Assembly: GCA_016190925.1 (NCBI GenBank)
Contig: JACPPQ010000109.1
Location: 1,614-65,613 of the forward strand
Length of the DNA: 64,000 nucleotides
Direction: 5' to 3'
DNA from: Chloroflexota bacterium
GTDB lineage: Bacteria; Chloroflexota; Dehalococcoidia; Dehalococcoidales; JACPPQ01
Below, one piece after another: positions 3,170-49,584 of the stretch. A model generated the notes under the pieces. The model searched no databases. It was given only the letters and a program-made list of their open reading frames with translations, and was not told where the DNA came from. Positions within the stretch are counted from its first letter, which is position 1. Each line of letters opens with the position of its first letter. The translations under genes were made by a program, and so were the position numbers.

Positions 3170-3357
3170 ACCTTCCCTTGGGAAAAAGCTTTAGCGAATA
3201 GCGCGAGCTGCAGGGGATAGTCATTTGCCGTTATTAAGCTCCGAATGTCTGATAATGGACATCCCGGGGCTTATTGCGAATTGATAAACTGGTGGCGTTC
3301 CTGCGTATACCGGTTATCGGTTTACTCAGAAAAATGGTATTGATTAACCCTATCTCC

Positions 3358-3542
3358 TTTACGTTAAGTAAACGCTCTGCGCTCTTGGCGCAGGGTAAAA
3401 AAATACAGTTTTCCAAAAGGACGTCCGCCTCAGGTGGATGGCCGCACGTAGAGCTTGCCTGAGCCTGCCCTGAGAGAAGCCGAAGGGTACCTGATACGGG
3501 GGTCAATGCCCTGCCCGCCTCTGGCGGGCGGAATTGCTTTAC
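3358..3542 (+). repeat. Composite hairpin-mosaic repeat, copy 1 (ends in GGAATTGCTTTAC)
   Basis: This copy aligns by eye with 4904..5111, 33307..33484 and, for the 3' half only, 61244..61347. It contains the hairpins CTGCGC-n5-GCGCAG, CGTCCGCC-TCA-GGTGGATG and CCCGCC-TCT-GGCGGG. Confidence 0.85.
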
Positions 3543-3625
3543 GAGCTGTTTGAAAAGTAAAAAGATTTGTGACTTGCCCTCTTTATTTCCCTCTCTCGAA
3601 AACAGGAAGGGAGAGCATTTTTTCT

Positions 3626-3748
3626 GAAGAGGGGCGTAATCCCCTCTTCAACACCCCATATTCGGACAACCTCAAGAATTTTAGAAGAGGGTTTGCACCC
3701 CTCTGGACGCCTCGACTTTTCATTGTTCGTGTGTGCGCCTCAGGCGCA
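3626..3748. repeat. Further hairpin modules in the dctP-dctQ spacer
   Basis: GAAGAGGGG-cgtaat-CCCCTCTTC lies at 3626..3649. AGAGGG-n7-CCCTCT follows near 3686. TGCGCC-TCA-GGCGCA lies at 3734..3748, and its 20-mer GTGCGCCTCAGGCGCATGGA recurs at 54245..54264. Confidence 0.8.
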
Positions 3749-3755
3749 TGGATAA

Positions 3756-4799
3756 TTACTTTACAAAGAGTTGTCTTAGTTTGTCGTAAGTTTGCTGATT
3801 GACATTCTTCTTCAAGACCGCCCACCTTGATTCGTAGGCAAGATTAAGATACGATTTTGTATCTTCAGGGGAGAAGGTGATAGGCTGCATGCCTTTTTCC
3901 ACTATTGTTTTCTTCGCGGCTTTGGCCAGATTGTCCGGCCGTGAAGGGTCTGCCTCCAATTTTGCTGCCTCATTCACCAGTATGTCTTGCAAGTTCTTTG
4001 GGAGCTTATTGAATCGGTCCATGTTTATATAGGTCGATGTATTAGTGTAGTAGAATGGGTAGTCAATCCAGTATTTGACCACTTCATACCATTTGTTCTG
4101 CACTGTCAGGTCGTAGGTCATAACATAGCCGTCAATCAGTTTGGTTTGCAGGCTGGTGTAAATGTCACCAAAACCTACATTGAGGGGGGTGACGCTCAGG
4201 GCATTTAAGAACGGGGTATAAGTCGGCGTGGTGCGCATCTTTAGCCCGGCTAACTCTTTGGGAGTCTTTACCTGGGGATTCAGGAATATGGAGAACATGG
4301 CCTCGGTGTTAGTGGCAATCATCCCCAGCAAGTATACCTTTGCCCTCTCCTTGAAAAGGTCGCGGATATAGGCATACCCGCCGGCCTGCCGATTTTCCCA
4401 CGATTTATACGAGGAGATAGAAATGGCCAAAGTCTCCGGCACAACATATTCCCATTCATCGGTGAAGCTGAAGAGCATATCGATTGTACCGGAACGCACT
4501 GCCTCAGTCTGGTTTGCTCTGGGGATAGCCTCCGGCCCGCCGACGATGTCAATAACAAGCTGCCCGTTAGACGCTTTCTTGACATTATCAACAAAATCAT
4601 CGGCGCTGAGCATCGTCGCTGTATGGGCGGGCAAAACGGTTACCGCTTTCAGCACTATCGGAGCCGCGGTTGGCGCGGGCGCAGGTGCTGGTTTTGGCGT
4701 GGCCGTGGGTGCCGGAGCCGGGGTTCGTGTACAGCCTGCCAGAACAAGCACCGCTGCCAGCGCTAAGGTCAGAATCAGGATTACAGTTTTCATTTTCAT
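3756..4799 (-). CDS. dctP: TRAP substrate-binding lipoprotein (DctP family) with a Pro/Ala/Thr linker
   Basis: The track ORF is 3756..4811. I prefer the ATG at 4799 (M5) because GGAGGGG lies 5 nt upstream of it. The protein has a signal peptide with lipobox VLAGC followed by TPAPAPTATPKPAPAPAPTAAP. The mature domain is DctP-like. Confidence 0.85.
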   Translation of the reverse strand: MKMKTVILILTLALAAVLVLAGCTRTPAPAPTATPKPAPAPAPTAAPIVLKAVTVLPAHTATMLSADDFVDNVKKASNGQLVIDIVGGPEAIPRANQTEAVRSGTIDMLFSFTDEWEYVVPETLAISISSYKSWENRQAGGYAYIRDLFKERAKVYLLGMIATNTEAMFSIFLNPQVKTPKELAGLKMRTTPTYTPFLNALSVTPLNVGFGDIYTSLQTKLIDGYVMTYDLTVQNKWYEVVKYWIDYPFYYTNTSTYINMDRFNKLPKNLQDILVNEAAKLEADPSRPDNLAKAAKKTIVEKGMQPITFSPEDTKSYLNLAYESRWAVLKKNVNQQTYDKLRQLFVK

Positions 4800-4903
4800 T
4801 TTCCCCTCCATGGTAATGAATTACTATTTCAAGTTGGCGTTTGCTATTGATTTCCGAATATCCCACCTCCTCCGAACAAATCTAACTTTTTCCAAGGTTA
4901 TTG

Positions 4904-5111
4904 TTTACGAAGTAAACGCCCTGCGGTCTCTGCCGCAGGGTTAAAATATATAGGGTTTCCAAAGGGACGTCCGCCTCAGGCGGATGGCTTGCCTCCGCTG
5001 AAGCTTTAGCGCAAGCAGGCCGCACGCAGAGCTTGCCCCGTTCACAGTTTGCCCCGTACCTGATACGGGGGTCAACGCCCTGCCCGCCTCTGGCGGGCGG
5101 AATTGCTTTAC
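4904..5111 (+). repeat. Composite hairpin-mosaic repeat, copy 2
   Basis: Its hairpins are CCCTGCGG-n6-CCGCAGGG, CGTCCGCC-TCA-GGCGGATG, CCCCGTA-cctga-TACGGGG and CCCGCC-TCT-GGCGGG. It ends in GGAATTGCTTTAC, and its last bases overlap the stop codon of the minus-strand gene 5108..5380. Confidence 0.85.
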
Positions 5112-5380
5112 AGGTACTTCTCTACGGGATTGGGAAGTTTTTCCAGAATCTTGATTCTCATGGGTTCAGGTATGATAGATTCGTCATAATCCTTCACCCA
5201 TAAAACATCACCTTCAGGTAGTTTGGCCGGGTCCCTGGAGAATTGAGCTTTAACATATATCCGCTCCAGGGTTTTGTGGTCTTTTATTTCGACGTTATTA
5301 ATCTGGAATATCTGCCTGTTCTCAAAGTCTGCCGCCTTTCCGCTATCACGGATGTCTATCATAGTGGCTTCCCATTCCAT
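5108..5380 (-). CDS. Small Cys-free protein (90 aa), paralog of 6953..7216; candidate UbiD accessory subunit
   Basis: It lies immediately downstream of UbiD-2 on the same strand. It shares the block VKAQFSRDPAKLPEGDVLWVK with VKAILSSKPGELPGGDTLWIR in the other small ORF. I recognise no known family. Confidence 0.6.
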   Translation of the reverse strand: MEWEATMIDIRDSGKAADFENRQIFQINNVEIKDHKTLERIYVKAQFSRDPAKLPEGDVLWVKDYDESIIPEPMRIKILEKLPNPVEKYL

Positions 5381-5450: not shown

Positions 5451-6917
5451 TTATTTCAAACCGTACGAAGTCCAATTTTTCACTACTTTGTCCTGTAACT
5501 CTTTAGAATACATGGCTGCAAAGGTCACTTTGGGCGGTGCCGTAATTTCAAGCGGCCAGTCCAGAGGCCAGGTGGCGTCATAGACTATTTGTGGGCCTGT
5601 CTGGTCCATTCTTTCCTTCAAATCGGCGGAAGGTTGAAGCGGGCTGCCCTGCTGGTGATACACCCATATTCCCCGCTCCGGATGTACTTTTTCGACAAGG
5701 CTATTAATAACGTCATCTGTGTTAAAAACATCGGTATCTTCGTCACACACTAGAATTGCGTAGGAGTACAGGCCACCGGCAGCAGAGTATATAGCCGCTG
5801 CTACCCCCTGAGCCACCCTGGGTCTCCCTCTCTTGACGGACACTATGACCAGGTCAGCGACACCCGGATAGCAATGCACCTCTTTTACCGGCCAGCCAGC
5901 GTCAGTCAAAAGCTTTCGATAGAAAGCTGATTTTACAACAGGTGCGATTATGCCACCTTCGTCCCTGCCTCGGCCTACGCTGGCCATGGATAATATCGGG
6001 TTATTTCGCCAGGTTATGCACTTCACGACAAAAACGGGGCGCAGGTCTCTCGGCGAAGCCCTGAAGCCTGTATACTCGCCAAAGGGACCTTCGTACGCCC
6101 GCACATGCGGCGGAACTATACCTTCGATGACTATCTCGGAGGATGCGGGCACGTAAATGTCATTGGTTTCACATTTGACCAGTTCGAGAGGTTTCTTCCT
6201 CCAGCCTCCTACGGCATCAACCTCAGACATCTTTGCGGGAATGGGACTGGCCGCAGCAATGGCAGATAAGGGGTCGGGATTTATGGCAATGGCGCAGGGC
6301 ATTGGCTCGTTAGCATCCTCGTACTGTTGATAGAACATGTTGGGCCCGTGCTGTCCATAAACAAAAAGGCAACCCAGGCTTCTTCTATCGTGAATCATGT
6401 GCCGGTACATACCCCAGTTTACCCAATCACTATTCTTGTCCTTGGTAATGGTAGCGTGATAAGTGCACATATATCGGCCGCCATCGCCTTCATGTATCAT
6501 CGGCGCGGGAAAGGTATACAGGTTGCAATCATTTCCAAACGTTTTATTCTCTTTACAAGGGGCCTTCTTGACTACTACCGGTTTTATCGGATGTTCCAGC
6601 CCGGCAATATACAGGTCCTGTAGCTCCCGCCAGGTTGCCTTGTCAGGGTTCGGATGTCCAAAGATAATGGCCATGCGCTTCAGGTTACAGATGCTGGAGC
6701 TTATAATCGAATGACCGGGGTAGCCTTTAATGTTTTCAAAGAGCATAGCGGGTTGTCCACCGTGGTTGACGTTCTTTCCCTCACCGATTTCCAGGGCTCT
6801 GCGCGCAATGGCGCCAGCTTCCAGATTCCAGTCTACCTCTTTTTTTATCCTGGCAAGCTCTCCAGCCGCCTCCCAGTCAACTATCGCATCCCTGACGCTA
6901 TCGTGTGGGAATGGCAT
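5451..6917 (-). CDS. UbiD-family decarboxylase/carboxylase, paralog 2
   Basis: This 488-aa ORF has an AAGGAGAA ribosome-binding site. It carries the motifs DWVNWGMYRHM and EGPFGEYTGFRA, plus the typical N-terminal segment that contains GELARIKKEVDW. Confidence 0.9.
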   Translation of the reverse strand: MPFPHDSVRDAIVDWEAAGELARIKKEVDWNLEAGAIARRALEIGEGKNVNHGGQPAMLFENIKGYPGHSIISSSICNLKRMAIIFGHPNPDKATWRELQDLYIAGLEHPIKPVVVKKAPCKENKTFGNDCNLYTFPAPMIHEGDGGRYMCTYHATITKDKNSDWVNWGMYRHMIHDRRSLGCLFVYGQHGPNMFYQQYEDANEPMPCAIAINPDPLSAIAAASPIPAKMSEVDAVGGWRKKPLELVKCETNDIYVPASSEIVIEGIVPPHVRAYEGPFGEYTGFRASPRDLRPVFVVKCITWRNNPILSMASVGRGRDEGGIIAPVVKSAFYRKLLTDAGWPVKEVHCYPGVADLVIVSVKRGRPRVAQGVAAAIYSAAGGLYSYAILVCDEDTDVFNTDDVINSLVEKVHPERGIWVYHQQGSPLQPSADLKERMDQTGPQIVYDATWPLDWPLEITAPPKVTFAAMYSKELQDKVVKNWTSYGLK

Positions 6918-7216: not shown

Positions 7217-7280
7217 GATGCATTCCTTCCTAAAAGTGGACAGGCAGTCCAAGATGACACTCTGACTTTCGGATATGAAT

Positions 7281-7382
7281 GTATAGATGCTAACTTGTTT
7301 GACTATCGATTATCTGCCAGACATAAGCGTAAATTATTGTAAGACTAATACCATATCCCCCTACCTTACTTTGCCTACACTG
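7281..7382 (-). promoter_or_regulatory. Conserved TGTAGG-box upstream element, copy a (read on the minus strand)
   Basis: The reverse complement reads TGTAGGCAAAGTAAGGTAGGGGGATATGGTATTAGTCTTACAATAATTTACGCTTATGTCTGGCAGATAATCGATAGTCAAACAAG. It closely matches copies b and c and sits upstream of the small-protein/UbiD-2 operon. Confidence 0.7.
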
Positions 7383-7564
7383 TTTTCCAAGCGTCGATAC
7401 CAAAATTACGCGGACTAACGGAAAGGGGTAACTAGGAAGGGGTCGCTGGTCATAGACATGTTCAGACGTCGGTCATACCGCTACTATCTTTGAGAATTGT
7501 TGGGGTCTTTGGATTCTGGGGAAGTCTAATAGTGGAAAAGAATAAATTTTAATTTTGGCATTAG

Positions 7565-8770: not shown

Positions 8771-8909
8771 AAATTTGCCTTCGAGGTATATTACATCGAC
8801 TTTCTACTGCACGGCAAGCATTATTGTCTCAAAACCGGCATTTCGTTTAATAAAGCGATTCCAGGTGAAATCATTCATGACAGGCACACTTCATCTGATG
8901 TGAAAGTGG

Positions 8910-9017
8910 TGTAGGCAAAGTAAGGTGGGGAACAATGGTATTAACCCTACAATAATTTACGCCGATGTCTGGCAGATAATCAGTGGTCAAAGAGGTTACT
9001 TTAAGGTACTAAGCATT
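8910..9017 (+). promoter_or_regulatory. Conserved TGTAGG-box upstream element, copy b
   Basis: The sequence is TGTAGGCAAAGTAAGGTGGGGAACAATGGTATTAACCCTACAATAATTTACGCCGATGTCTGGCAGATAATCAGTGGTCAAAGAGGTTACTTTAAGGTACTAAGCATT. TGTAGG at 8910..8915 can pair with CCTACA at 8946..8951. Confidence 0.7.
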
Positions 9018-9094: not shown

Positions 9095-10279
9095 ATGAGA
9101 ACGAGAATAAGGACAATCCTCATCGCGTGTTTGGGACTGGTTGTAACGGGAGTGCTTCTGGCAGGGTGTGCCGCGCCAGCCCCAACTCCAACTCCCGCAC
9201 CCGCGCCCAAACCTGCGCCTACGACTGCACCGGCGCCAGCAACTACACCCAAACCTCCGGCACCTGCACCTCCGGCCACACCAAAACCCACTCCACCGCC
9301 AGCCCCGGCACCGGTAAGCGCAGCAGAGTTTTACCGGAATAATCCTGCAACTATTTATGTTGGCTATGGGGCTGGTGGTGGGGCCGACTATGCTACCCGC
9401 ACGTTCGCTTCTTTCTGGAAAGAGGTCACCGGCGGTACCATGGTGGCCAAGAATATGGAAGGTGCATCTGGGATGGCATTGGCCAATTGGATGTACAAAA
9501 CGGCCAAACCGGATGGTCTTACCATAGGGCTACTATATAGCGGCGCCTCTTTGACAGGCCCGGTGCTTTTCGCAAAGTCCGGTGTCGAGTTCGACCTGCA
9601 GAAATTCATATATATCGGCTCGTTTTATCAGGATATGCCCGGGCTTGCCATCAGCACTAAGCTGCCATATACCTCCCTGGATGAGTTGCGGAAAGTTAAA
9701 GGTCTGAAAATCGGGACTGTGGCGTTAAGAGACATAAACGCGCTGGCGGCAGCCCTGGCCATTGAGTTTCTTGGTCTGCAGGATGCCAGGATTGTTGCCG
9801 GCTACTCCGGTACGCCGGAGATGTTTCTGGCTGTGGGCAGGGGTGAGATAGATGCCGTTTCATATACCGCCGCTACAATTCTGCGTGAGCGTGGAGCCGG
9901 GACGGGATATTTTAAGCCAATATGGGTCGTGATGGCTGAGCAAAGGTCTCCGGCTTTCCCCGATGCACCAACGCTTGGCGAGTTAGTAAAGATCTCCCCA
10001 TCGGACGCACCATTGTTAGAACTCCTGTCAGCTATGGCATCGTATCCGGTAATCTTTGCCCCGCCAGGGGTACCCCAGGACCGGGTTGAATTTCTACGCG
10101 CTACTTTTGACAAAATGTTTTCCAATGAAACCTTTGTGCAACAGATGAAGAAGAATTTTCCGGTGTGGACTAAGCCTGTTAGCGGGGTAAACGAGACTAA
10201 AAACATTGAGCGTGTACTAAAGGTATCCAAGGTTGACATAGACAGAGGAAACGCTTTGATAGACAAATACTCACGCTGA
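9095..10279 (+). CDS. tctC: Tripartite tricarboxylate transporter substrate-binding lipoprotein (TctC/Bug family)
   Basis: This 394-aa ORF has lipobox LLAGC followed by a ~50-aa Pro/Ala/Thr linker. The mature part contains GYGAGGGADYATR...NMEGASGMALANW...KPDGLTIG, which is typical of Bug/TctC proteins. Confidence 0.85.
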   Translation: MRTRIRTILIACLGLVVTGVLLAGCAAPAPTPTPAPAPKPAPTTAPAPATTPKPPAPAPPATPKPTPPPAPAPVSAAEFYRNNPATIYVGYGAGGGADYATRTFASFWKEVTGGTMVAKNMEGASGMALANWMYKTAKPDGLTIGLLYSGASLTGPVLFAKSGVEFDLQKFIYIGSFYQDMPGLAISTKLPYTSLDELRKVKGLKIGTVALRDINALAAALAIEFLGLQDARIVAGYSGTPEMFLAVGRGEIDAVSYTAATILRERGAGTGYFKPIWVVMAEQRSPAFPDAPTLGELVKISPSDAPLLELLSAMASYPVIFAPPGVPQDRVEFLRATFDKMFSNETFVQQMKKNFPVWTKPVSGVNETKNIERVLKVSKVDIDRGNALIDKYSR

Positions 10280-10384
10280 CAACTAAGGCGTCTACTCCCG
10301 GCCGAAAGCATATCTTCTGAGTAAGGGGATGCCCTCGGTAAGATTGTCCAGGGCATCCCCTGGAGCAGGGTGAGGTAAGAGCGG

Positions 10385-11899
10385 ATGGCAGTAGAGGCTT
10401 TTCTTCAAGCCTTACAAAATTTCAGGGATTTAGACCTCCTTCTTTTCATGTTCGTCGGGTCAATTATCGGAATCGTATTTGGCCTTATTCCGGCTATTGG
10501 CAGTCTGACGGCGATGGCTCTCATTATACCCTTCACCTTCATGATGCCGCCGATGAATGCCATCCCCCTTTTGCTTGCGTTAACCAGCGGCGCCATTACT
10601 GCCGGCTCAATAACCTCTATTTTGCTCAATATCCCCGGAACGGGTGTCAATGTGGCAACTCTTATCGATGGTTTTCCGATGAACCAGAAAGGTCAAGCTG
10701 GACGTGCCTTAGGAGCAGCTCTGGTGAGTTCTGGAATGGGCGGGGTTTTTTCCGTATTTCTGGCCTTTGCCATAATACCGCTCGTATTGCCTATGGTGAT
10801 GGCGCTCCGTTCAGCAGATATGGTCTTCGTGATACTCTTGGGAATAACCTTTATCGGTGTTCTTGGGACAGGCTCCACACTCAAAGGTCTAATCAGCGGA
10901 GGAATCGGGCTGCTAATTTCTTTCATTGGATATCAAGCGTCAACAGGAGCGTCACGCTTCACCTTCGGAGCTAACTATCTGTATGATGGTATCCCCTTGC
11001 TCCCTGTGATTTTAGGCATATTCGGCTTGCCGGAAATGATTACTCTGGCAGCAAAAGGTGGCGCCATCGCTAAAGCAGGAGCCAACGTTAAAGGAGTGCG
11101 AGATATATTTGAAGGAGGGAAGGACGTATTTCGCCACTTTTTCTTGTGGATGCGTAGCACTATTTTAGGTTACATTATCGGCATCGTTCCGGGTGTGGGA
11201 GCGTCGGTAGCCCAGTTCGTAGCTTATGGGCAAGCACGGCAGACTTCAAGACATCCTCAGAAGTTCGGTACTGGCACTGTCGAAGGTGTTATTGCTCCGG
11301 AAAGCGCCAATAATGCGGTTCAGGGCGGGGCATTATTAACCATGCTGGCATTGGGTATACCGGGAAGCCCTGATACGGCGATTCTATTGGGCGCGTTACT
11401 ATTGATGAATGTTATACCCGGTCCACAAATGATGACCGCTCAGCTTGACCTATCGCTTACGCTTTTGTTAATCGTTATCGGCGCTAACATTATAGCTGCG
11501 AGCGTTTGTCTGATACTGGCACCAAATCTGGCTAAAGTAGCGTATATTCCTGGTCGTATTCTCGTTCCTTTGGTGATAGCAATAATATTCATCGGGGCTT
11601 ATGTTCATCGGGAGTCACTTAATGATGTGGTTGTAACCATCGCTTTCGGCATAGTTGGATTAGCGATGAGGAATTTTGGTTTTAGCAGACCCTCACTGTT
11701 ATTGGGCCTTATCCTGGGAACTCTGTTCGAGCACTATCTTTTCCTTGCGCTTGCAGCATCTGGCCCGCTATTCTTCGTGAGACCTATCAGCCTGGTTCTA
11801 ATTGTTATTAGTATAGCTGCTATTTTCCAGGGACAAATAAGAGGCCTGTTCGGAAATCGATTTAGAAGGCAAGCTAAGACGTATGAAACTAAAGGGTAG
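10385..11899 (+). CDS. tctA: Tripartite tricarboxylate transporter large permease (TctA family)
   Basis: This is a 504-aa polytopic ORF placed between tctC and a small four-helix ORF. Length and hydrophobic pattern fit TctA. Confidence 0.85.
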   Translation: MAVEAFLQALQNFRDLDLLLFMFVGSIIGIVFGLIPAIGSLTAMALIIPFTFMMPPMNAIPLLLALTSGAITAGSITSILLNIPGTGVNVATLIDGFPMNQKGQAGRALGAALVSSGMGGVFSVFLAFAIIPLVLPMVMALRSADMVFVILLGITFIGVLGTGSTLKGLISGGIGLLISFIGYQASTGASRFTFGANYLYDGIPLLPVILGIFGLPEMITLAAKGGAIAKAGANVKGVRDIFEGGKDVFRHFFLWMRSTILGYIIGIVPGVGASVAQFVAYGQARQTSRHPQKFGTGTVEGVIAPESANNAVQGGALLTMLALGIPGSPDTAILLGALLLMNVIPGPQMMTAQLDLSLTLLLIVIGANIIAASVCLILAPNLAKVAYIPGRILVPLVIAIIFIGAYVHRESLNDVVVTIAFGIVGLAMRNFGFSRPSLLLGLILGTLFEHYLFLALAASGPLFFVRPISLVLIVISIAAIFQGQIRGLFGNRFRRQAKTYETKG

Positions 11900-12347
11900 C
11901 TCATATTGCTATATCGGGGTTATGGGCATTGCTGCGGCAGTCATAATTCTGGCGTTGCCTATGGAATCCTTGAAGCCCAAATTGCTTCCTTTAATTTTAG
12001 GAGGCATCGTTTTTGTTCTATCGGCAGCAGGTCTCTGGCGGGACCTTTTTGTGCAAAACAATAAACCCGATGGTGAGACAAAAAAGGATGTCGATTCGGA
12101 AGTCGCCGATGCAAGATTGGGCGGCTATTTAGCCATCGGAGTATGGATAGCGGGCTTTTTCCTGGCCATTTATTTGGTCGGTTTTACCATAGCTACTCTA
12201 TTGTTCGTCCTGGCCTATATTAAAGCGCACGGCGCGAAATGGCTAACCGCTATTATCTTTACCATTATTACTTTAGCTGTTGTATATGGTGTATTCGAGG
12301 TAGTTTTGAAAATGAGCTTATATAAAGGACTATTTTTTGCTTTTTAG
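11883..12347 (+). CDS. tctB: Tripartite tricarboxylate transporter small subunit (TctB family)
   Basis: This 154-aa ORF has about four hydrophobic helices and overlaps the tctA end by 17 nt. The C-A-B gene order differs from the usual C-B-A. Confidence 0.7.
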   Translation: MKLKGSSYCYIGVMGIAAAVIILALPMESLKPKLLPLILGGIVFVLSAAGLWRDLFVQNNKPDGETKKDVDSEVADARLGGYLAIGVWIAGFFLAIYLVGFTIATLLFVLAYIKAHGAKWLTAIIFTIITLAVVYGVFEVVLKMSLYKGLFFAF

Positions 12348-12426
12348 TTATGGTACTGGATGAGTCTGCTGAAAACCTTGAGCTTCGGGTAAAAACATAA
12401 ATTTATTGTAATAAGGAGAACAAACG

Positions 12427-14037
12427 ATGGCATACTACAGGGACTTGAGAGAATACCTTAAAGTCCTGGAATCCAAAGGAAAGCTTGTCAGGATAAACCG
12501 GGAGATAAACAAGGATACCGAGCTTATGCCATTGGTCAGATGGCAATTTCGTGGGCTTCCAGAGGAGCAAAGGAAAGCCTTCATCTTCGATAATGTGAAA
12601 GATGCAAAGGGGAAAAAGTACGATATGCCGGTAGTGGTGGCCGCTCATGCTCCATCCAGAGAGGTCTACGCACTGGCCATGATGTGCGCGCCTGACAAGA
12701 TTATTGAGCGCTGGACGGAGGGCCAGCTTCATCCCATAGAACCTGTAGTGATAGAGAGCGGGCCAGTCCATGAGAATATTCATCAGGGTGACGAGCTTAT
12801 TACATGGGGTGGTCTGGGACACCTCCCGGTACCCATTTCAACGCCAGGATTCGATAACGCTCCTTATTTGACTTGCTCCAACTGGGTAAGCAAAGACCCG
12901 GACACTGGCATAAGGAACATGGGCATTTACCGGGGTATGTTGAAAAGCGCTACCAGGCTGGGGATACAGTGCGACCAGGGTAAGCATCTGCGCATACACT
13001 GGGAAAAGTGCCGGAACAAAGGGATTCCATTGCAGGTTGCGGTAGTTGTCGGGGCGAGCCCTAACCTGGGATTTGTTGGAGCGGCACATATACCGTACGG
13101 TGTGGATGAATTCGCAATCGCCGGTGGCCTCAGCGGAGAACCGATTAAGCTGGTAAAGTGCAAGACGGTGAACATCGAGGTCCCCGCTACGGCAGAGATA
13201 GTCATAGAGGGTGAAATGCCTACGGATTCTATGGAGAAAGAGGGACCCTTCGGAGAGTTCACCGGCTATATGGGAGCCGAGGGGGTCTACCCCTATTTCA
13301 ACGTCAAGTGCATTACGCATCGTAACGATGCAATTTACACGGCCTTTATCAGCCAATTTGCACCGAGCGAGAGCAGCAAGCTGAGGCAAATTTCCCAGGA
13401 AGGTGTCTGGTATAAGCTCCTGAAGCATGACTTGAATAATCCGGGCGTACTGAGATGTGCCTTTCACGAGAACGCCAGCGGGAGTTCCGCTGCCCTCCTT
13501 GTGATACAGCTCAAGAAAGCGCATCCCTTCGATGCATGGCATGCCCTGGACGGGGCGGCTGCCTTCACCCAGAGCTGGCCCAGGATAATAATAGCGGTTG
13601 ACGAAGACATCGACCCGGAGGATGCTGATTCGGTGAACTGGGCGCTCAGCTTCAGGATGGAACCACATAGAGATTTGCGCGTGGTTCAGGGGAAAGCCTA
13701 TAACCTGGACCAGGCGAGCAATCCGCCATGGACACCCCAGGCAGAAAGGTTTTACCCATCGCCGAACGGAAGCTCGGTCTTGTTGATAGATGCCACCAGA
13801 AAGTGGCCGTACCGGCCGGTTTCACTGCCCGCCAGGAAATTCATGGAAAGGGCAAAGCAAATCTGGGAAGAAGAAAAGCTTCCCAGGCTAATCCCACGGT
13901 CTCCCTGGTTTGGCTACTCACTGGGACAGTGGACTGATGAGAACAAGGAAGAGGCCGAGCTGGCCCTTAATGAAGAACACTACCAGACAGGCGAAAAGAT
14001 AGCCAGGCAAAGGACTCAGCTTGGCAACTCTGAATAA
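12427..14037 (+). CDS. UbiD-family decarboxylase/carboxylase, paralog 3 (long C-terminal tail)
   Basis: This 536-aa ORF has an AAGGAG ribosome-binding site. The N-terminus reads MAYYRDLREYLKVLESKGKL, and the motifs GIRNMGIYRGM and EGPFGEFTGYMG are present. Confidence 0.9.
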   Translation: MAYYRDLREYLKVLESKGKLVRINREINKDTELMPLVRWQFRGLPEEQRKAFIFDNVKDAKGKKYDMPVVVAAHAPSREVYALAMMCAPDKIIERWTEGQLHPIEPVVIESGPVHENIHQGDELITWGGLGHLPVPISTPGFDNAPYLTCSNWVSKDPDTGIRNMGIYRGMLKSATRLGIQCDQGKHLRIHWEKCRNKGIPLQVAVVVGASPNLGFVGAAHIPYGVDEFAIAGGLSGEPIKLVKCKTVNIEVPATAEIVIEGEMPTDSMEKEGPFGEFTGYMGAEGVYPYFNVKCITHRNDAIYTAFISQFAPSESSKLRQISQEGVWYKLLKHDLNNPGVLRCAFHENASGSSAALLVIQLKKAHPFDAWHALDGAAAFTQSWPRIIIAVDEDIDPEDADSVNWALSFRMEPHRDLRVVQGKAYNLDQASNPPWTPQAERFYPSPNGSSVLLIDATRKWPYRPVSLPARKFMERAKQIWEEEKLPRLIPRSPWFGYSLGQWTDENKEEAELALNEEHYQTGEKIARQRTQLGNSE

Positions 14038-14076
14038 CCAATAACCTGGACCCGACATTGTAATCCTTAAAATTGA

Positions 14077-14184
14077 TGTAGGCAAAGCAAGGTAGAAAAT
14101 AATAGTATTAGTCTTACATCAACTTACGCCGATGTCTGGTAGATAACGATAGTCAAAGAGATTAGTTTTAAGGTACTAAGCATT
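14077..14184 (+). promoter_or_regulatory. Conserved TGTAGG-box upstream element, copy c
   Basis: The sequence is TGTAGGCAAAGCAAGGTAGAAAATAATAGTATTAGTCTTACATCAACTTACGCCGATGTCTGGTAGATAACGATAGTCAAAGAGATTAGTTTTAAGGTACTAAGCATT. It is collinear with copy b up to the start codon of the next gene. Confidence 0.7.
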
Positions 14185-14256
14185 ATGGACATATCTCATT
14201 CGGATATAACCTGGAGAATATGAGACCCAGGTGCAGACACAGAAAGGAGAAATCGT

Positions 14257-15378
14257 ATGAAAAATGGAATAAAGACAATCTTCATCGTGTGTTTAGGTTT
14301 AATCACCACAGTAGCACTTCTTGCTGGATGTGCCGCACCAGCAACCACCCCTGCTCCCGCGCCTAAACCAGCACCTGCTCCGGCAACAACGGCTGCTCCA
14401 GCGCCGAAGCCTTCGCCCAGTCCGGCTCCCGGGCCAGCAACAGTTTGGACGTTTGCCATCCATAGAGGCACTAATTCTATGGAGCTGGCTTATACGCCAA
14501 ATCCACGCTTCCAGGACATGATAGCAAAAGCAACCGGTGGCCGGCTGAAACTCGATACCAAAGTGGAAATATTTCCGCCCAATGAGGTCATAAACGCGGT
14601 AATTGATGGGCGAATAGACATGGGATTGCAGAGACTGGATTATGTCTCCGGGACCTTCCCTCTTTGGGGTTTTGGCTCTCTTCCATTCTTCTTTTCAAAC
14701 TATCATTACGAATATGAAGCAGCACTAAACGACCCCCGCATGATTCAACTACTGCAGAAAAGCTATGGAGAATCCGGCCTGTTTTATCTATTTGACACTT
14801 CTGGCACCGGAATCGAATCCATTTGGTCCAAAAAGCCTATCGCTACGCTCGACGATCTCAAGGGCGTTAAAGTAAGGGCCTCCGGCTTGCTTACCACAAG
14901 GGCGTTACAGCTTCTGGGTGCGGCACCCTTAACCACAGCCCCGGGAGAAATAGTCGATGCAATGCAAAAGGGACTGGTTGATGCTGTAGCTTCGGGCATG
15001 GGATTCGGTCTCTTCCTGGGGCTGGCCGATGTTTCCAAGTATGTTAATTCCTGGCCGATAACCGAAGTGTTTCCGGGTTCTGTGGTAGTCAACATGAAAA
15101 AATGGAATGCCTTACCCGATGACCTGAAGCAGATAGTAATCAATGTGGCGAAAGAGGTACAGGGGCAGGTAGTTCTTGCTGTTGATGTTGAATGGAGGAA
15201 GACCCTCGCTAGCCTTCAGGCTGCGAAAATGCAGGTCATAATACCTGACAAAGCCCACATACAAAAAGCGAGAGAGCTTACTAAACCTGCAATTGATGAG
15301 TGGGTTAAGTTGGCTGGTCCTTACGCCCCAGAGCTCCTAAGCATTGCTTCGCAATATGCCAGTGGGGCGAAAAAATAG
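14257..15378 (+). CDS. Orphan TRAP-type (DctP-like) substrate-binding lipoprotein
   Basis: This 373-aa ORF has lipobox LLAGC and a Pro/Ala linker. The mature domain contains GGRLKLDTKVEIFPPNE...GRIDMG...GSLPFFF, which is DctP-like. No dctQM genes are adjacent. Confidence 0.75.
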   Translation: MKNGIKTIFIVCLGLITTVALLAGCAAPATTPAPAPKPAPAPATTAAPAPKPSPSPAPGPATVWTFAIHRGTNSMELAYTPNPRFQDMIAKATGGRLKLDTKVEIFPPNEVINAVIDGRIDMGLQRLDYVSGTFPLWGFGSLPFFFSNYHYEYEAALNDPRMIQLLQKSYGESGLFYLFDTSGTGIESIWSKKPIATLDDLKGVKVRASGLLTTRALQLLGAAPLTTAPGEIVDAMQKGLVDAVASGMGFGLFLGLADVSKYVNSWPITEVFPGSVVVNMKKWNALPDDLKQIVINVAKEVQGQVVLAVDVEWRKTLASLQAAKMQVIIPDKAHIQKARELTKPAIDEWVKLAGPYAPELLSIASQYASGAKK

Positions 15379-20709: not shown

Positions 20710-22146
20710 GTGGGCACGGAATACAGGGACTTGAGGGAATGGCTCTCGAAAGTCGAGGAAATTGGAGAGCTCAGGCGGGGCAAATCCCTTACCGTAGAAG
20801 AAGACGCCGGCAGGGTAGCGGAGATATTGCCCGCCCTGGAAAACGGACCGGCGGTTATTCTGGATGAGTTAGTAGGGTACGAGCCCGGTTACCGAATCCT
20901 GCTTAATCTCTTCGGCAGCACTCGCAGGATAGCCCTGTCATTTGGATTTCCTATTGACTCGGATAGAAAATCGCTGCTTCAGCACTTTGAAAAGAAACTC
21001 GAAAAGATCGAGCTTATAAAACCAGCCTATGTCGAAACAGGCCCCATATTAGAAAACCGGCTGGTAGGGGATGATGTGAATCTTGACCGGTTTCCTGTTC
21101 CTCTGTGGCATAAGCACGATGGAGGTCCCTACATTGGAACAGGATGCGCGGTGGTTACGCAAGACCCTGACGACGGTTGGGTTAATTTGGGGACCTACAG
21201 AAACCAGCTCTTCGATAAGAAAACGGTGGGATTCTATATCACTTCGGCGGGGCAGGGAAGGGTTCATCGGGAAAAGTACTTCAGTCGCGGAAAACCATGC
21301 CCGGTGGCCGTTGTTTTCGGGATGGACCCTTTGCTATTTACCGGGGGTATGACTGACATTCCTCCAGGCATCTGTGAATATGATTGGGTCGGAGGTTGGC
21401 AAGGCAGGCCGGTGCAGGTTATCAAGGGACCTGTAACCGGTCTTCCGGTTCCTGCTAATGCTGAAATTGTAATCGAAGGTTTCTCTTATCCGGGAAAAAA
21501 CCGGCTCGAAGGCCCTTTCGGTGAGTCGAGGGGATATTATGCATCAGGCGCAAGCGAAGCACCTTACATCGAAGCTCAGGCCCTTTACTTCAGGAATGAA
21601 CCTATTCTTCTGGGAATGCCGTCCCAAAAACCGCCCTACGATGCAGACAAAGCTAGGCAGTATATGAAATCTGCGCTACTGAAACAACAGTTGAAGCAGT
21701 TCGGTATCCCGGGAATAACGGATGTATGGTGCTATGGAGAAGGTAGCTGCAGGCTTTTTGTGGTAGTCGCTATAAAGCAGCAGTATCCCGGACATTCCCG
21801 ACAGGCAGGTCATGCGGTTTATGCCAGCCGCGTAATCACTTACGGGCGCTATGTAATAGTGGTCGATGACGATATCGATGTTGCCGATATCAAAGATGTG
21901 CTGTGGGCTATTACAACCCGTTCTAGCCCGGCAACCTCGGTAGACATCATACACAAAGCGAGGTCATTTCAGTTAGACCCGCTAATCTCGCCTGAGGACC
22001 GGGCGGCAGGCCGATATTATGATTCTCGCGCCATCATCGATGCCACAAAGCCATTCGAATGGAAAGACCAGTTTCCTTTACCCGTACAGACAGACCAGGA
22101 GTACAGGCGGGAAACCAGAAAAAAGTTTGATTATCTTTTTAAATAG
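20710..22146 (+). CDS. UbiD-family decarboxylase/carboxylase, paralog 4
   Basis: This 478-aa ORF has a GTG start 2 nt after the previous stop. The motifs DDGWVNLGTYRNQ and EGPFGESRGYYASG are present. It is a close paralog of 59000..60439. Confidence 0.9.
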   Translation: MGTEYRDLREWLSKVEEIGELRRGKSLTVEEDAGRVAEILPALENGPAVILDELVGYEPGYRILLNLFGSTRRIALSFGFPIDSDRKSLLQHFEKKLEKIELIKPAYVETGPILENRLVGDDVNLDRFPVPLWHKHDGGPYIGTGCAVVTQDPDDGWVNLGTYRNQLFDKKTVGFYITSAGQGRVHREKYFSRGKPCPVAVVFGMDPLLFTGGMTDIPPGICEYDWVGGWQGRPVQVIKGPVTGLPVPANAEIVIEGFSYPGKNRLEGPFGESRGYYASGASEAPYIEAQALYFRNEPILLGMPSQKPPYDADKARQYMKSALLKQQLKQFGIPGITDVWCYGEGSCRLFVVVAIKQQYPGHSRQAGHAVYASRVITYGRYVIVVDDDIDVADIKDVLWAITTRSSPATSVDIIHKARSFQLDPLISPEDRAAGRYYDSRAIIDATKPFEWKDQFPLPVQTDQEYRRETRKKFDYLFK

Positions 22147-27088: not shown

Positions 27089-27262
27089 CTATATAGTTAC
27101 CTCCTTTTTATAGTCGATGTAGTTTATCCCCTTCGGGCTACAGGAGTTTCGTGACTTGTGGTATAAATCAAGCAGCATTGTACTTCGTTATGCATGGTAT
27201 CAGTTGGATGTCCCGTTGTCAATAATTAGAATCAGTCATAATAGGCTTTTTCATGACCTTGA

Positions 27263-27292
27263 CATGTATGTTATAATCATGTATGTTATAAG
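27263..27292. promoter_or_regulatory. Tandem 15-bp direct repeat CATGTATGTTATAAT / CATGTATGTTATAAG in the divergent promoter region
   Basis: The two units are adjacent, differ only in the last base, and overlap a TTGACA hexamer at 27259..27264. They lie between the thiolase operon (start 27088, minus strand) and the kinase gene (27420, plus strand). Confidence 0.5.
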
Positions 27293-27419: not shown

Positions 27420-29096
27420 GTGGTGGTATCAGAAACTTTGACGAGATGCATGCTACCTATGAATGGCATTCTAAATCCTCACGTCTGCCTGTTTTACCGG
27501 GCTCGACAGCAAGCGGATGACTTCTTATTGCCTTTCCTGGAAGAGGGACTGGAGAATAACGAAGTCTGCCTTTGGGTGAGCGATAGATGTCAGGAAGCCG
27601 AAGAAGCAGCGAGAAAGCGTATCCGCAATTTTGATATTCAACTGTCTCAAGGCCGGATAGATATTATCCCGCACACGTTGTTCTGCCTTGAGAATGAAGG
27701 CTTCAACCCGCGTATAGCACTTGCATGGTGGGTTGATAGAGTTAACCAATTATCGGATGAAGGATGCGGAAGCATCCGGATTATTTGCGATGCGGGCAGT
27801 ATCAATAAGAGACTTTGCTACATGCTGAGTGACCTTCAGGATACAATGAACCGCGATAGACAAATAAGTTCAATAGCCATTCTTTGTGTTCATTCTCTAC
27901 ACAACTGCACCACATCTCAATCGATGGAAATCGCAATGAGGCATGACCTGGCACTGGTTAAACGTGGACCTAAATGGAGCTTTATCAAGAGACGCCAGAG
28001 CAAACGTGTAGATGAAGTGGTCCAGCTCCAAAGTGAGATATTATCGAAAGCTCCTGCTGGAGCACTTATTGTGCAGAGGAGCGATAATACCATAATCTAC
28101 TGTAATGCGGAACTTGAGAAAATGTTTGGCTATGAACGAGGTGAATTGCTCGGTAAGAATGTAGCCATACTAAATGCGCCGTCTGGTGGAAAATCAGCCG
28201 AAGCTATTAGGGACGAAATTGTCGATGCGCTGGAAAAATGTGGTGATTGGAGCGGGGAGCTCAAGAACATAAAGAAGGATGGCACAATCTTTTACTGTCG
28301 CTCACGGGTCTCGACATCGCAGTCGTCGCGCTATGGAAAGGTTTCCATTGCATTCCACGCAGATATTACTGAGCGTAAGCGAGTAGCCGAGGAATTACAA
28401 AGGTCGCGTGATGAACTGCGCAATCTTTCCTTGCATTTGCAGTGCGTGAGGGAGGAAGAGAGGAAACTTGTGGCGCGTCGCATTCATGACGACCTGGGGC
28501 AGTCGCTGGCGGCTCTGCGAATGGAGCTGGCAGGGATAAGAGGAAGGCTACCGCCGGGTATCGATTCACTACACGAAAGGCTGGAAGAGGCCATAAGAGG
28601 TGTCGATGGTACTATCCAACAGGCAAGAGAAATTTCGACACAGTTGAGGCCGGGGATACTGGATGATTTTGGCCTTCTGGCTGCGATGGAATGGGAGGCA
28701 AGCGAGTTCCAGAGGCGCACCGGGACTCAGTGCGCAGTCAAGGGCAATCCCGGCATTGCCATCGGAAAGAACTGCGCTGCATCTATTTTTGAGATATTTC
28801 GTGAAGCTCTGACTAATATTGCTCAGCACGCCAACGCTACCAGGGTTACAACCTGTATCAAAGTTGAGGAGGGCAAATTGGTTCTTCAGGTCAGGGACAA
28901 CGGAAGAGGAATTACAGCCGAGCAGGTATCTTCTCCAAAATCGTTTGGCCTGCTGGGAGTGAAGGAGCGCGTACGTTTCTGGGGAGGAGAGACAAAGATA
29001 AAAGGTATCACAGGTAAAGGTACTAACTTGAAGGTAATAATCCCGGTAGGGAGCATTCAGGAGGACCACCATGATAAAGATGCTTGTTGCCGATGA
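27420..29096 (+). CDS. Sensor histidine kinase: MEDS-like N-terminal domain, PAS, HisKA_3, HATPase_c
   Basis: This 558-aa ORF starts with GTG after AGGAG; starts at 27423 or 27450 are also possible. The N-terminus HVCLFYRARQQADDFLLPFLEEGLENNEVCLWV resembles a MEDS domain. A PAS region follows, with an H-box at RRIHDDLGQSL and an ATPase domain at the C-terminus. Confidence 0.8.
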   Translation: MVVSETLTRCMLPMNGILNPHVCLFYRARQQADDFLLPFLEEGLENNEVCLWVSDRCQEAEEAARKRIRNFDIQLSQGRIDIIPHTLFCLENEGFNPRIALAWWVDRVNQLSDEGCGSIRIICDAGSINKRLCYMLSDLQDTMNRDRQISSIAILCVHSLHNCTTSQSMEIAMRHDLALVKRGPKWSFIKRRQSKRVDEVVQLQSEILSKAPAGALIVQRSDNTIIYCNAELEKMFGYERGELLGKNVAILNAPSGGKSAEAIRDEIVDALEKCGDWSGELKNIKKDGTIFYCRSRVSTSQSSRYGKVSIAFHADITERKRVAEELQRSRDELRNLSLHLQCVREEERKLVARRIHDDLGQSLAALRMELAGIRGRLPPGIDSLHERLEEAIRGVDGTIQQAREISTQLRPGILDDFGLLAAMEWEASEFQRRTGTQCAVKGNPGIAIGKNCAASIFEIFREALTNIAQHANATRVTTCIKVEEGKLVLQVRDNGRGITAEQVSSPKSFGLLGVKERVRFWGGETKIKGITGKGTNLKVIIPVGSIQEDHHDKDACCR

Positions 29097-29697
29097 CCAT
29101 GCGGTTGTCCGGAAGGGGCTGAAGGAGATAGTGGGAAATATCCCCCAATTAGTCGTAGCTGACGAAGCGTGCAACGGCGACGAGGTTATGCGAAAGGTGT
29201 GGCAAAACGATTATGACCTCCTCTTGCTGGATATTACCATGCCTGGTAGAAGTGGGCTTGAAGTACTGAAGGAAGTCAAGAACTTGAAACCGCAACTACC
29301 CATTCTGATACTCAGTATTCATCCTGAAGAGCATTATGCCGTGCGCGTCCTGAGAGCGGGAGCAAGCGGATATTTAAACAAGGAAAGCGCTCCGGACGAG
29401 TTGCGCTCTGCTATTGAGAAAGTAGCGGCTGGCGGGAAATATGTCAGCCCGATTGTGGCGGAAATTCTTGCCTCCGAACTGGTAGACAGCGAAAAAGCAG
29501 CTCATGAATCTTTATCCGACCGTGAATATGAAATTATGTGCATGGTAGCTACGGGCAAAACGGTAAAGCAGGCTGCGACAGAGCTCAAATTAAGTCCTAA
29601 GACTGTGAGCAGTTATATTCACCGTATTCTGGTCAAGATGAGAATGCGAAACAAGAGCCAGCTTACAAGATATGCTATCGAACATCTTCTAATATAA
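29071..29697 (+). CDS. NarL/FixJ-type response regulator (REC + LuxR HTH)
   Basis: This 208-aa ORF contains MLVADDH...LLLLDITMPG (receiver domain) and LSDREYEIMCMVATGKTVKQAATELKLSPKTVSSY (LuxR-type HTH). It overlaps the kinase gene by 26 nt. Confidence 0.9.
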   Translation: MIKMLVADDHAVVRKGLKEIVGNIPQLVVADEACNGDEVMRKVWQNDYDLLLLDITMPGRSGLEVLKEVKNLKPQLPILILSIHPEEHYAVRVLRAGASGYLNKESAPDELRSAIEKVAAGGKYVSPIVAEILASELVDSEKAAHESLSDREYEIMCMVATGKTVKQAATELKLSPKTVSSYIHRILVKMRMRNKSQLTRYAIEHLLI

Positions 29698-29879
29698 AAT
29701 TACCAATCGATGCCCTTATTAGTTTGATTAACCAACCTTCTTATCAGTGCGTCGCAGTTCACCGTGTTTCTCTGCTATTTCTGTTTGCAAGCATGCCCGT
29801 ATCTTTCCAGAAATGGCCGAAATACCAACCTCGCTTTTTGGTCTTGGGTTCTTGCATCGTGACACACTCTCTCTACCTG

Positions 29880-29982
29880 TGTAGGACAAGGGCTACATCT
29901 GGATATGGCAAACGTCCTACGGAATCAAGGGGTCACATCTTACAGACTTGCCGCAACACTAATTGATAGTATCAAAGGCAGA
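29880..29982 (+). promoter_or_regulatory. TGTAGG-box upstream element, divergent copy d
   Basis: The sequence is TGTAGGACAAGGGCTACATCTGGATATGGCAAACGTCCTACGG...CTAATTGATAGTATCAAAGGCAG. It keeps the closing helix (GTAGGAC/GTCCTAC) and the TAAT-GATAGT-CAAAG block. It lies upstream of the Isf-like/amidohydrolase pair. Confidence 0.5.
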
Positions 29983-30115
29983 TTCCCAAACATTTTCCTC
30001 AGCGAGTAGAGCATGCCCGAAATACCAATTGCTAATGTAAGTGGCAGAGAGGGCGGATAAACCGAAATTTAAGTATGGTTGTAACAAAATTAATTAACCT
30101 GGAGGGTAGGCAAGT

Positions 30116-32821: not shown

Positions 32822-33286
32822 CTATATCTCTATATGCAGGCCTTTGCCTATCTTCATGCAAACGAAAGCTTCGGTATCTCTCAATCCCTTGATTTTCACT
32901 GTCTCTCTATGCAAAAAGTCAGCAAGTTCATCAGCTGAACGAAATGCAGCAAATACCATGATATCAAAGCGTCCTGTGGTGCTTGAAATCCAGGCTACCT
33001 GCTGGTAGCTGGCCAGTTGTCTGACTGCTGCTTCAACCTTGTCCTGTTCTACGTCAAAAGCCAGCATAGTCAGAAAAGGAAATCCCGCTTTATAAGGGTC
33101 GACCAGGGCGGCTATCCGCAGTATTTGGCTTTCGGTTAATCTCTTCATCCGGCGTCTGACTGTAGACGGACTAATGCTGAGTTGCTTTGCCAGTGTTTCA
33201 CTTGACTGTTGGGGGTCGGTTCTTAATAGAGAGATAATCTGCCGGTCAACGGAATCCAACGGCTCTTCGTCGTTTCTCTTTCTCAT
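32822..33286 (-). CDS. Lrp/AsnC-family transcriptional regulator
   Basis: This 154-aa ORF has an N-terminal HTH (LDSVDRQIISLLRTDPQQSSETLAKQLSISPSTVRRRMKRL) followed by an AsnC-type ligand-binding domain. It is divergent from the 33876 operon. Confidence 0.85.
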   Translation of the reverse strand: MRKRNDEEPLDSVDRQIISLLRTDPQQSSETLAKQLSISPSTVRRRMKRLTESQILRIAALVDPYKAGFPFLTMLAFDVEQDKVEAAVRQLASYQQVAWISSTTGRFDIMVFAAFRSADELADFLHRETVKIKGLRDTEAFVCMKIGKGLHIEI

Positions 33287-33306
33287 GTTCCATTACCTTT
33301 CGCACT

Positions 33307-33484
33307 TTTACGTTAAGTAAACGCCCTGCGCCAAGAGCGCAGGGTAAAAAATATACAGGGTTTCCAAAGGGACGTCCGCCTCAGGCGGATGGCCGCACGC
33401 AGAGCTTGCCCCGTTCACAGCCTGCCCCGTACCTGATACGGGGGTCAATGCCCTGCCCGCCTCTGGCGGGCGGAATTGCTTTAC
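33307..33484 (+). repeat. Composite hairpin-mosaic repeat, copy 3
   Basis: Its hairpins are CCCTGCGC-caaga-GCGCAGGG, CGTCCGCC-TCA-GGCGGATG, CCCCGTA-cctga-TACGGGG and CCCGCC-TCT-GGCGGG, ending in GGAATTGCTTTAC. By eye it is almost identical to copy 2 over the 3' part. Confidence 0.85.
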
Positions 33485-49506: not shown

Positions 49507-49584
49507 GATACGAATATAAACTTGATAATTAATACAAACGACTTACTAACCGTCTCATATTAAGATAGAATCATGGAAATAGCT

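Follow-up and report, generated by a model that had tools for sequence, protein, structure and literature searches.

Inverted TGTAGG/CYTACA hexamers upstream of five operons may mark a shared regulon signal in a catabolic gene island of an uncultured Chloroflexi bacterium

The 64,000-nucleotide stretch of the 72,957-bp contig JACPPQ010000109.1 analysed here (the window) belongs to the metagenome-assembled genome (MAG) of an uncultured Chloroflexi bacterium. According to Pfam annotation it is a dense catabolic island of the aromatic/organic-acid degradation type, and five of its operons are preceded by copies of one intergenic element, which is marked by the inverted hexamers TGTAGG and CYTACA. 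The island encodes at least six UbiD-family (de)carboxylases, a phenylphosphate-carboxylase-gamma-like small protein, and transporters of the TTT (tctCAB), TRAP and MFS types; the TctC-like protein has the locus tag HYX79_06440. Other genes encode hydantoinase/acetone-carboxylase-like proteins, isochorismatases, nitroreductase/FMN reductases, an amidohydrolase, an M20 peptidase and aldehyde:ferredoxin oxidoreductases (AFOR), and a methylmalonyl-CoA-mutase/aminotransferase block is also present. The regulators in the window are a MEDS-PAS-HisKA_3 sensor kinase, a NarL/GerE-type response regulator and an AsnC/Lrp protein (32822-33286). The copies of the element, their hexamers and promoter-like sequences, and the two-component genes are located as follows.

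7265-7389, minus strand: copy a, upstream of the phenylphosphate-carboxylase-gamma-like gene (ATG at 7216) and the UbiD gene 5451-6917 (nhmmer E 2e-43; Pfam)
7374-7379, minus strand: 5' half-site TGTAGG of copy a
7338-7343, minus strand: 3' half-site CTTACA of copy a
7278-7305, minus strand: weak promoter-like pair TAGTCA-16-TACATT of copy a (8/12)
8895-9017, plus strand: copy b, upstream of the tctC-like/tctA/tctB/UbiD operon, 9095-14037 (nhmmer E 2e-49; Pfam)
8910-8915, plus strand: TGTAGG of copy b
8946-8951, plus strand: CCTACA of copy b
8984-9012, plus strand: weak promoter-like pair TGGTCA-17-TACTAA of copy b; the conservation between b and c stops 5 nt downstream
14062-14184, plus strand: copy c, upstream of the DctP-like gene 14257-15378 (nhmmer E 2e-45; Pfam)
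14077-14082, plus strand: TGTAGG of copy c, where the palindrome is longer (TTGATGTAGG / CTTACATCAA)
14113-14118, plus strand: CTTACA of copy c
14150-14179, plus strand: weak promoter-like pair TAGTCA-18-TACTAA of copy c
27420-29096, plus strand: MEDS-PAS-HisKA_3 sensor kinase, candidate sensor of the putative regulon (Pfam, NCBIfam)
29071-29697, plus strand: NarL/FixJ-type response regulator, candidate binder of the boxes (Pfam, NCBIfam)
29875-29982, plus strand: copy d, divergent and with the core only, upstream of the FMN_red gene at 30116 and the amidohydrolase gene at 30828 (Pfam)
29880-29897, plus strand: TGTAGG-N6-GCTACA of copy d, the best match to a GacA/UvrY box in the window (1 mismatch)
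29916-29921, plus strand: 3' half-site CCTACG of copy d, at the N30 spacing of the family
60531-60648, minus strand: copy e, upstream of the UbiD gene 59000-60439 and M20, flavoprotein, ferredoxin and TRAP genes (nhmmer E 3.8e-7 with the profile of a, b and c; Pfam)
60633-60638, minus strand: TGTAGG of copy e
60597-60602, minus strand: CTTACA of copy e
60531-60565, minus strand: two overlapping promoter-like pairs of copy e, TTAACA-18-TACACT (9/12), co-registered with those of a to c, and TTGACT-16-TATAAC (10/12)

Copies a, b and c were found as repeats within the window: 8903-8979 and 14070-14146 are 81% identical, and 7291-7387 is 81% complementary to 8902-8998. The nhmmer profile built on the three gave E values of 2e-43 to 2e-49. 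Their pairwise identity is 77-79% over positions -10 to +89 relative to TGTAGG, and the repeat spans about 100-130 nt. Copy e is 57-58% identical to them and was recovered by the same profile over 60570-60641 on the minus strand. The repeat is confirmed as real, and copy d is probably its most distant member. Copy d shares 37-47% identity with the others and was undetected by the nhmmer profiles of either a, b and c or a, b, c and e, even at E<=50. It keeps TGTAGG-N30-CYTAC with a 41-nt span identical to that of the other four copies; for a TGTAGG/CYTAC pattern the expected number per window is 0.71 when all spacings of 20 to 40 are allowed, and about 0.03 for one fixed spacing. Copy d also agrees, ungapped and in register, with 15 of the 29 further columns invariant in a, b, c and e (binomial p 0.0018; empirical p 0.0019 over all window positions). 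A matrix built without d places it 6th of about 128,000 positions and 2nd among those outside the training set. Because of the N30 spacing, the shared columns and this leave-one-out rank, copy d is probably a divergent member of the motif family. No sixth copy was found when the 64-kb window was scanned with the five-copy matrix. In the matrix scan without d, the top non-family score fell, purely from composition, on an AT-rich intergenic stretch (1100-1320) that carries GTTGACATAACTC twice (at about 1149 and 1258).

All five copies are intergenic and have the same orientation as the operon downstream. The distance from the 3' end of the element, as delimited in the original prediction, to the start codon is 65 nt in a (to the ATG at 7216), 78 in b, 73 in c, 134 in d and 92 in e, while TGTAGG lies 163-236 nt from the start codon; within 65-134 nt of each copy a protein-coding operon with a Shine-Dalgarno (SD) sequence begins. 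On the upstream side, copy a lies downstream of the co-oriented MFS gene, copy c begins 25-40 nt past the stop codon of UbiD-3, and the stop codon of the response regulator lies 183 nt ahead of copy d. The original prediction, made from the letters of the DNA, had described three close and two divergent copies placed 80-220 nt upstream of five co-oriented operons, with a and b inverted around the MFS gene. The close copies are borne out by the repeat search and the profile, e by its profile match and d, as probable, by core spacing and register; orientation agrees in 5/5, the distances agree roughly, Pfam supports the identity of the five operons, and the MFS gene does lie between an inverted pair. 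The sequence blocks that it listed as shared are present in a, b and c and partly in e, and in d reduce to scattered invariant bases.

Two local features of the divergent copies may be recorded here. A direct repeat, GCATGCCCG...AAATACCAA (29791-29828 and 30011-30028), flanks copy d on both sides, and its left copy has a 20-nt insert; this pattern has 0 expected occurrences by chance and occurs only here in the window. It could be the site of a second regulator or the trace of an insertion. Inside copy e (60573-60592) there is a perfect palindrome, CTGACG-N8-CGTCAG, at the blocks equivalent to TTACGC...TGGCAGA of a to c. The scanner calls it terminator-like, on the opposite strand, and it is absent from a to d.

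The pattern of conservation in the element is uneven. All five copies have the invariant skeleton TGTAGG-NN-AAG-N14-AT-N-G-N-A-N5-C-N-TAC, with scattered A, G, A..TC and AGA positions after it. In 10/10 pairwise comparisons the identity of the 5' hexamer is 100%; for the 3' hexamer it is 67-100%, and for the 30 nt that separate the two it is as low as 27-50% when d is compared. Stems kept for pairing alone normally drift by compensatory change at such divergence. With the 5' hexamer invariant and the intervening 30 nt divergent, the alignment points to sequence-specific recognition rather than pairing.

A second line of evidence comes from copies b and c, which share a duplication unit running from about 10 nt before TGTAGG into the signal-peptide/linker codons of two unrelated binding-protein genes. 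Identity along this unit is 32% upstream, 82% in the element, 43% in the 5' untranslated region (5'UTR) after GCATT, 72% at the SD sequence and 72% in the signal-peptide codons. Strong conservation begins about 10 nt before TGTAGG and ends about 5 nt after the putative -10 hexamer, and no conserved promoter was found in the unit upstream of the hexamers. This profile is the expected pattern for regulator sites plus a promoter, followed by a 5'UTR that would be free to vary. The TctC-like (9095-9260) and DctP-like (14257-14420) proteins belong to different families, yet their genes share the element, the SD sequence, a 72%-identical signal-peptide/lipobox segment and a Pro/Ala-rich linker. A promoter-plus-signal-peptide cassette thus appears to have been copied onto two unrelated binding-protein genes. 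Neither a conserved leader peptide nor a small open reading frame (ORF) was found on either strand, and the element has stops in all frames.

From the pairing of the hexamers, the original prediction had proposed that the element might be a sense-strand cis-regulatory RNA leader. Such a leader would be transcribed from an upstream promoter or, in a, c and d, by read-through, and would act through a ligand or an RNA-binding protein, its fold being the TGTAGG/CYTACA hairpin or, alternatively, a set of nested helices made from GTARG and YTTAC repeats. Copies a, c and d do follow co-oriented genes without a detectable terminator and could be transcribed in this way. Every one of the 30 cells in the 6-bp helix holds a standard pair, and this on the sense strand only, since on the antisense strand G-U becomes C-A. 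The pair types had been read correctly (G-C in b and d, G-U in a, c and e), and the palindrome extends to 10 bp in c and to 7-8 bp in d. However, four of the six pairs are invariant, the other two change on one side only (G-C/G-U and U-A/U-G), and 0 changes are compensatory. Both one-sided changes are transitions (C/T and A/G) and are equally well described as a degenerate half-site TGTARG; the claim that such substitutions could persist only in a sense-strand RNA helix is not supported. The extension of the helix in d, which had been called covarying, is confined to d; the corresponding columns are unpaired in the other four copies, so that this extension is not covariation. With five sequences, every shuffle equals the observed covariation values of this helix, so that the test carries no information.

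The nested alternative was given by RNAalifold for a, b, c and e; it pairs GTGTAGG with TTTACGC and GTAGGG with TCTTAC, using three GTARG and two YTTAC repeats. On the sense strand the consensus of these four copies is more favourable than that of column shuffles (z -2.9, 2/300) and on the antisense strand it is not (z -0.6), but a z of -2.9 is the result that any inverted repeat would give. The covariation of the nested helices is not above that of shuffles, 72-210 of 500 reaching the observed values, and d and e do not fit them. Consensus energies range from -4.1 (five copies) to -7.1 kcal/mol, and single-sequence folds are not above dinucleotide shuffles (z +0.28, +0.83, -0.52, -1.15 and -1.15). 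Rfam gave 0 matches at the gathering score in the window and nothing over a, b and c at E<=10. From the elements to the start codons the sense strand has no terminator-like site, the sequence from element to SD is not conserved (43% in the 5'UTR of b and c), and there is no conserved promoter ahead of the duplicated unit of b and c. Arms that stay invariant while the loop diverges are also unusual for a stem kept only for pairing. The RNA-helix reading is weakened by this evidence and is not supported; the leader suggested in the original prediction, with single-sequence folds at shuffle level, appears unlikely. The more specific proposal of a new lineage-specific cis-regulatory RNA before UbiD/organic-acid transporter operons, whose repeats would form mutually exclusive switch helices, seems to us distinctly improbable.

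Promoter-like hexamers were found at the 3' end of four copies. In a, b, c and e a -35/-10 pair with a spacing of 16-18 nt lies downstream of the conserved sites and in the same register, with the -35 at +73..+79 and the -10 at +96..+102 from TGTAGG. These pairs are weak (8-10 of 12 to consensus). Elsewhere in the window there is a canonical sigma-70 promoter, TTGACA-18-TGnTATAAT (12/12), at 33816-33845 before the methylmalonyl-CoA mutase operon, and strong divergent promoters (TTGACA-17-TACCAT and TTGACA-17-TATGTT) occupy 27194-27287 between the thiolase-like and sensor-kinase operons. Because the genome uses canonical sigma-70 promoters elsewhere while the hexamers of a to c are poor, the sequence suggests that the latter depend on an activator. 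A sigma-54 -24/-12 motif was also considered in the TGGCAG block and rejected by eye: the spacing and the GC dinucleotide misfit, and copy e is without GG.

The two inverted hexamers could instead be a repressor operator bracketing an internal promoter, with a -35 TAGGCA (in TGTAGGCA), a -10 TATGGT, AATAGT or CATAGT and a 16-nt spacer. Transcription would then start at the CYTACA hexamer, a repressor occupying the two hexamers would block the promoter, and the blocks further downstream would belong to the 5'UTR. TAGGCA-16-TATGGT in a and TAGGCA-16-AATAGT in c are promoter-like pairs of 8/12, the -10 position coincides, in each of the five copies, with the invariant A, T and G of the ATRGYA block, and the hexamers would fall exactly at -35 and +1. 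These internal hexamers are, however, no better than those at the 3' end, and the G at the fifth -10 position is unfavourable. Such an operator also leaves unexplained why the 80-90% conservation of b and c continues over another 75 nt downstream before a sharp drop, and why copy e has a 10/12 promoter at its 3' end. We regard repression from this site as improbable.

The element was also sought outside the window. The five-copy invariant pattern gave 3 chance-level matches (Thalassotalea, Levyibacteriota and Shewanella) in 185,579 species genomes, a set outside which the window's own MAG lies. JGI metagenome contigs gave 0 matches to the strict pattern of a, b, c and e or to the core pattern, and blastn of the element against plasmids and phages gave no match. 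The best homologues are 44% identical for the TctC-like protein (non-self), 45% for the kinase (over a partial match) and 77% for UbiD-5 (non-self), the last on a 5-kb contig with an unrelated upstream region. The nhmmer profile of a, b, c and e found no credible match on the retrieved homologue loci, where flanking-protein identity is 44-77%, and searching the literature for TGTAGG/CCTACA operators yielded nothing but primer noise.

Related Chloroflexi MAG loci with UbiD, TRAP, TTT, nitroreductase and AFOR genes have repeated promoter modules of their own, with sequences unrelated to the element. Two of these loci, L001 and L002, carry repeated TTGACx-17-TATAnT modules, for example CGCTTGAyAG...GTGATATAnTAT in L001 (6573-6621 / 14113-14161) and CTTGACGC...GTGCTATAnTGG in L002 (5526-5563 / 14239-14276). 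The copying of promoter modules within such islands may be common in the group.

That the element was not found in other genomes is consistent with a passive repeat, in which a promoter/5' region was spread by segmental duplication or recombination, or as a small mobile intergenic repeat, and the likeness of the copies reflects recent ancestry rather than a common regulator. The duplication unit of b and c, which reaches the signal-peptide codons of two unrelated genes, the inverted pair a and b around the MFS gene, and the other repeated intergenic elements of the window agree with this. Recent ancestry does not account for the 82% identity kept in the element of b and c against 43% in the adjacent 5'UTR, nor for the hexamers, spacing and scattered invariant bases kept in d and e at 37-58% overall identity, nor for the co-orientation of five of five copies with the downstream operon. 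Neither terminal inverted repeats nor target duplications were seen around these copies other than d, the 5' border is sharp, and the Pfam scan of ORFs gave no transposase or recombinase. We regard a passive repeat as improbable.

Other repeated intergenic elements are present in the window. A repeat of about 200 nt is present in three copies (3343-3545, about 4900-5112 and 33292-33485), two of which are 94-97% identical, with partial similarity at 61287-61328; one copy lies within a TRAP operon, between dctQ and dctP. It consists of four perfect GC-rich hairpins (e.g. GTCCGCCTCAGGCGGAT and GCCCGCCTCTGGCGGGC), is more stable than its shuffles on either strand (z -2.9 and -2.3) and, below the gathering score, has Rfam matches at chance level only (E 2.3-7.1). 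In appearance it is a hairpin cluster of the REP/BIME type. Short intergenic repeats of hairpin type (e.g. TTCTCCCTTTCGCAAAGGGAGA, GGCACTCGCCTCAGGCGAGTGCC and GTGCGCCTCAGGCGCATGG) were found at 49584-49617 / 61033-61066, 54187-54214 / 60886-60913 and 3733-3759 / 54246-54272, and they crowd the 971 nt that precede copy e.

As for the protein that may bind the element, the response regulator 29071-29697 is the only one in the window and is encoded directly upstream of copy d. Among NCBIfam models it scores best against UvrY/SirA/GacA (NF007018, 174 bits), ahead of MctR (141) and NarL (135), and its best match in the PDB is NarL (1a04, E 8e-29). Its full-length identity to E. coli UvrY is 37%, and the recognition helices of the two are similar (LSPKTVSSYIHRI vs LSPKTVNSYRYRM). 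The UvrY/GacA box TGTAAGN6CTTACA has the same half-sites, TGTARG/CYTACA (PMC3171408). Copy d contains the N6 form with one mismatch (TGTAGG-ACAAGG-GCTACA), a box that, once TGTAGG is present, would arise by chance with an estimated probability of about 0.008 per copy. Over the whole window GacA-type N6 boxes are at chance level (49 vs 57.8 expected) and only d stands out, while a, b, c and e have no half-site at the N6 position. No TGTARG/CYTACA hexamers were found upstream of the kinase operon or the Lrp gene, where autoregulatory boxes were sought. The NarL/FixJ-type response regulator, with its adjacent MEDS-PAS kinase, is our most likely, though tentative, candidate for the regulator of the element, and the AsnC/Lrp protein, encoded beside the amino-acid/mutase block, is an alternative binder.

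The UvrY/GacA/SirA box is the upstream activating sequence of csrB/rsmY/rsmZ-type small RNA (sRNA) genes and is bound by NarL/FixJ-family response regulators (PMC3171408). The element resembles it in having the same hexamer half-sites, inverted and upstream of a regulated (here predicted) promoter, in the N6 version present in copy d, and in the NarL/FixJ-type regulator with UvrY/GacA as best model that adjoins that copy. In contrast, the spacing is N30 in all five copies instead of 6, so that the sites do not form the 18-bp palindrome of this box. The targets are protein-coding catabolic/transport operons and not Csr/Rsm sRNA genes, and Rfam gave no match to CsrB, RsmY or RsmZ in the window. 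The partner kinase is of the MEDS-PAS type and not BarA/GacS, the host belongs to the Chloroflexi and not the Gammaproteobacteria, and the candidate regulator, at 37% identity to UvrY, is below the family cut-off. On spacing, regulator score and target type, the element is outside the UvrY/GacA regulon.

Aromatic catabolic promoters are the targets of StyR and TodT, two-component response regulators that act through several spaced sites and cooperative dimer-dimer contacts (PMC2442086). Like StyS/StyR-PstyA and TodS/TodT-PtodX, the system proposed here would pair a PAS-containing kinase and a response regulator with a catabolic promoter, with several spaced sites between about -110 and the promoter. 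The box sequences of those systems are unrelated to that of the element. They use palindromic dimer sites together with IHF, whereas the element conserves isolated half-sites and no IHF site was identified in it. The TACYYMT heptamers of NarL occur as 7-2-7 pairs or as single or variably spaced sites, centred for example near -70. NarL belongs to the same protein family as the candidate regulator, and its heptamer arrays share with the element a flexible arrangement of short half-sites, the 3' hexamer being centred near -70 in the promoter model; the half-site sequence differs. With the riboswitches and leaders of Rfam the element shares a conserved block of about 100 nt, co-oriented before several operons, and a sense-strand inverted repeat. 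Unlike them, it is without a family match, covariation above shuffles in the five copies, above-shuffle stability or an expression platform, and its arms are invariant in sequence.

The second suggestion of the original prediction, a common operator that defines a regulon, fits all of this evidence and is the best explanation of the placement, the orientation and the sequence-specific conservation. We propose, with a probability of about 0.55, that the element is an activator-dependent promoter with an upstream array of regulator-binding sites, defining a small regulon of five operons. The upstream part would be the site array, with the inverted hexamers TGTAGG...N30...CYTACA as its core and more conserved bases between and after them, and the downstream part the weak sigma-70-type -35/-10 pair at about +73..+102 from TGTAGG. 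If the 3'-end hexamers are used, transcription would start near +108, which would put the two hexamers around -106 and -70 and the GATGTCTGGCAGATAA block at about -54 to -40, positions typical for activators that bring RNA polymerase to a poor promoter. The five operons would then be switched on together as one regulon; we infer activation here, and not repression. The response regulator would probably bind as two or more dimers interacting across 36 bp centre-to-centre, since one dimer cannot span N30.

Several observations weigh against this proposal. The N30 spacing is unlike that of any characterised GacA/NarL-type site, and the 174 bits of the response regulator are below the UvrY/SirA/GacA family cut-off of 280. 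The promoter hexamers are weak, scan counts of promoter-like sites are not above those of shuffles, and no promoter could be placed in copy d. A 10.5-nt periodicity of conservation was not seen (10-11.5 nt tested, p 0.46-0.94). No related element was found in any other genome searched, and the sense-strand RNAalifold result given above would also be expected of an RNA.

Outside the element, the UbiD genes are themselves related. The tandem paralogues 61411-62844 and 63311-64000 have 71-75% DNA identity, and the products of 20710-22146 and 59000-60439 are 68% identical as proteins, which indicates that UbiD genes have been duplicated repeatedly inside the island. The ORF at 343-810 had no Pfam or NCBIfam match.

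The element would be a previously undescribed but ordinary kind of regulon signal, as shared operators are common in catabolic islands, and no general concept is changed by it. If the proposal is true, the element would show GacA-type half-sites in use at a spacing of 30 nt. It would also join five operons of an anaerobic aromatic/organic-acid degradation island as one regulon; these operons hold three of the UbiD-family (de)carboxylase genes of the window, TTT and TRAP transporters and amidohydrolases. The MEDS-PAS two-component system would be indicated as the switch of the island, which would give a handle on the inducing substrate of uncharacterised enzymes in an uncultured Chloroflexi lineage.

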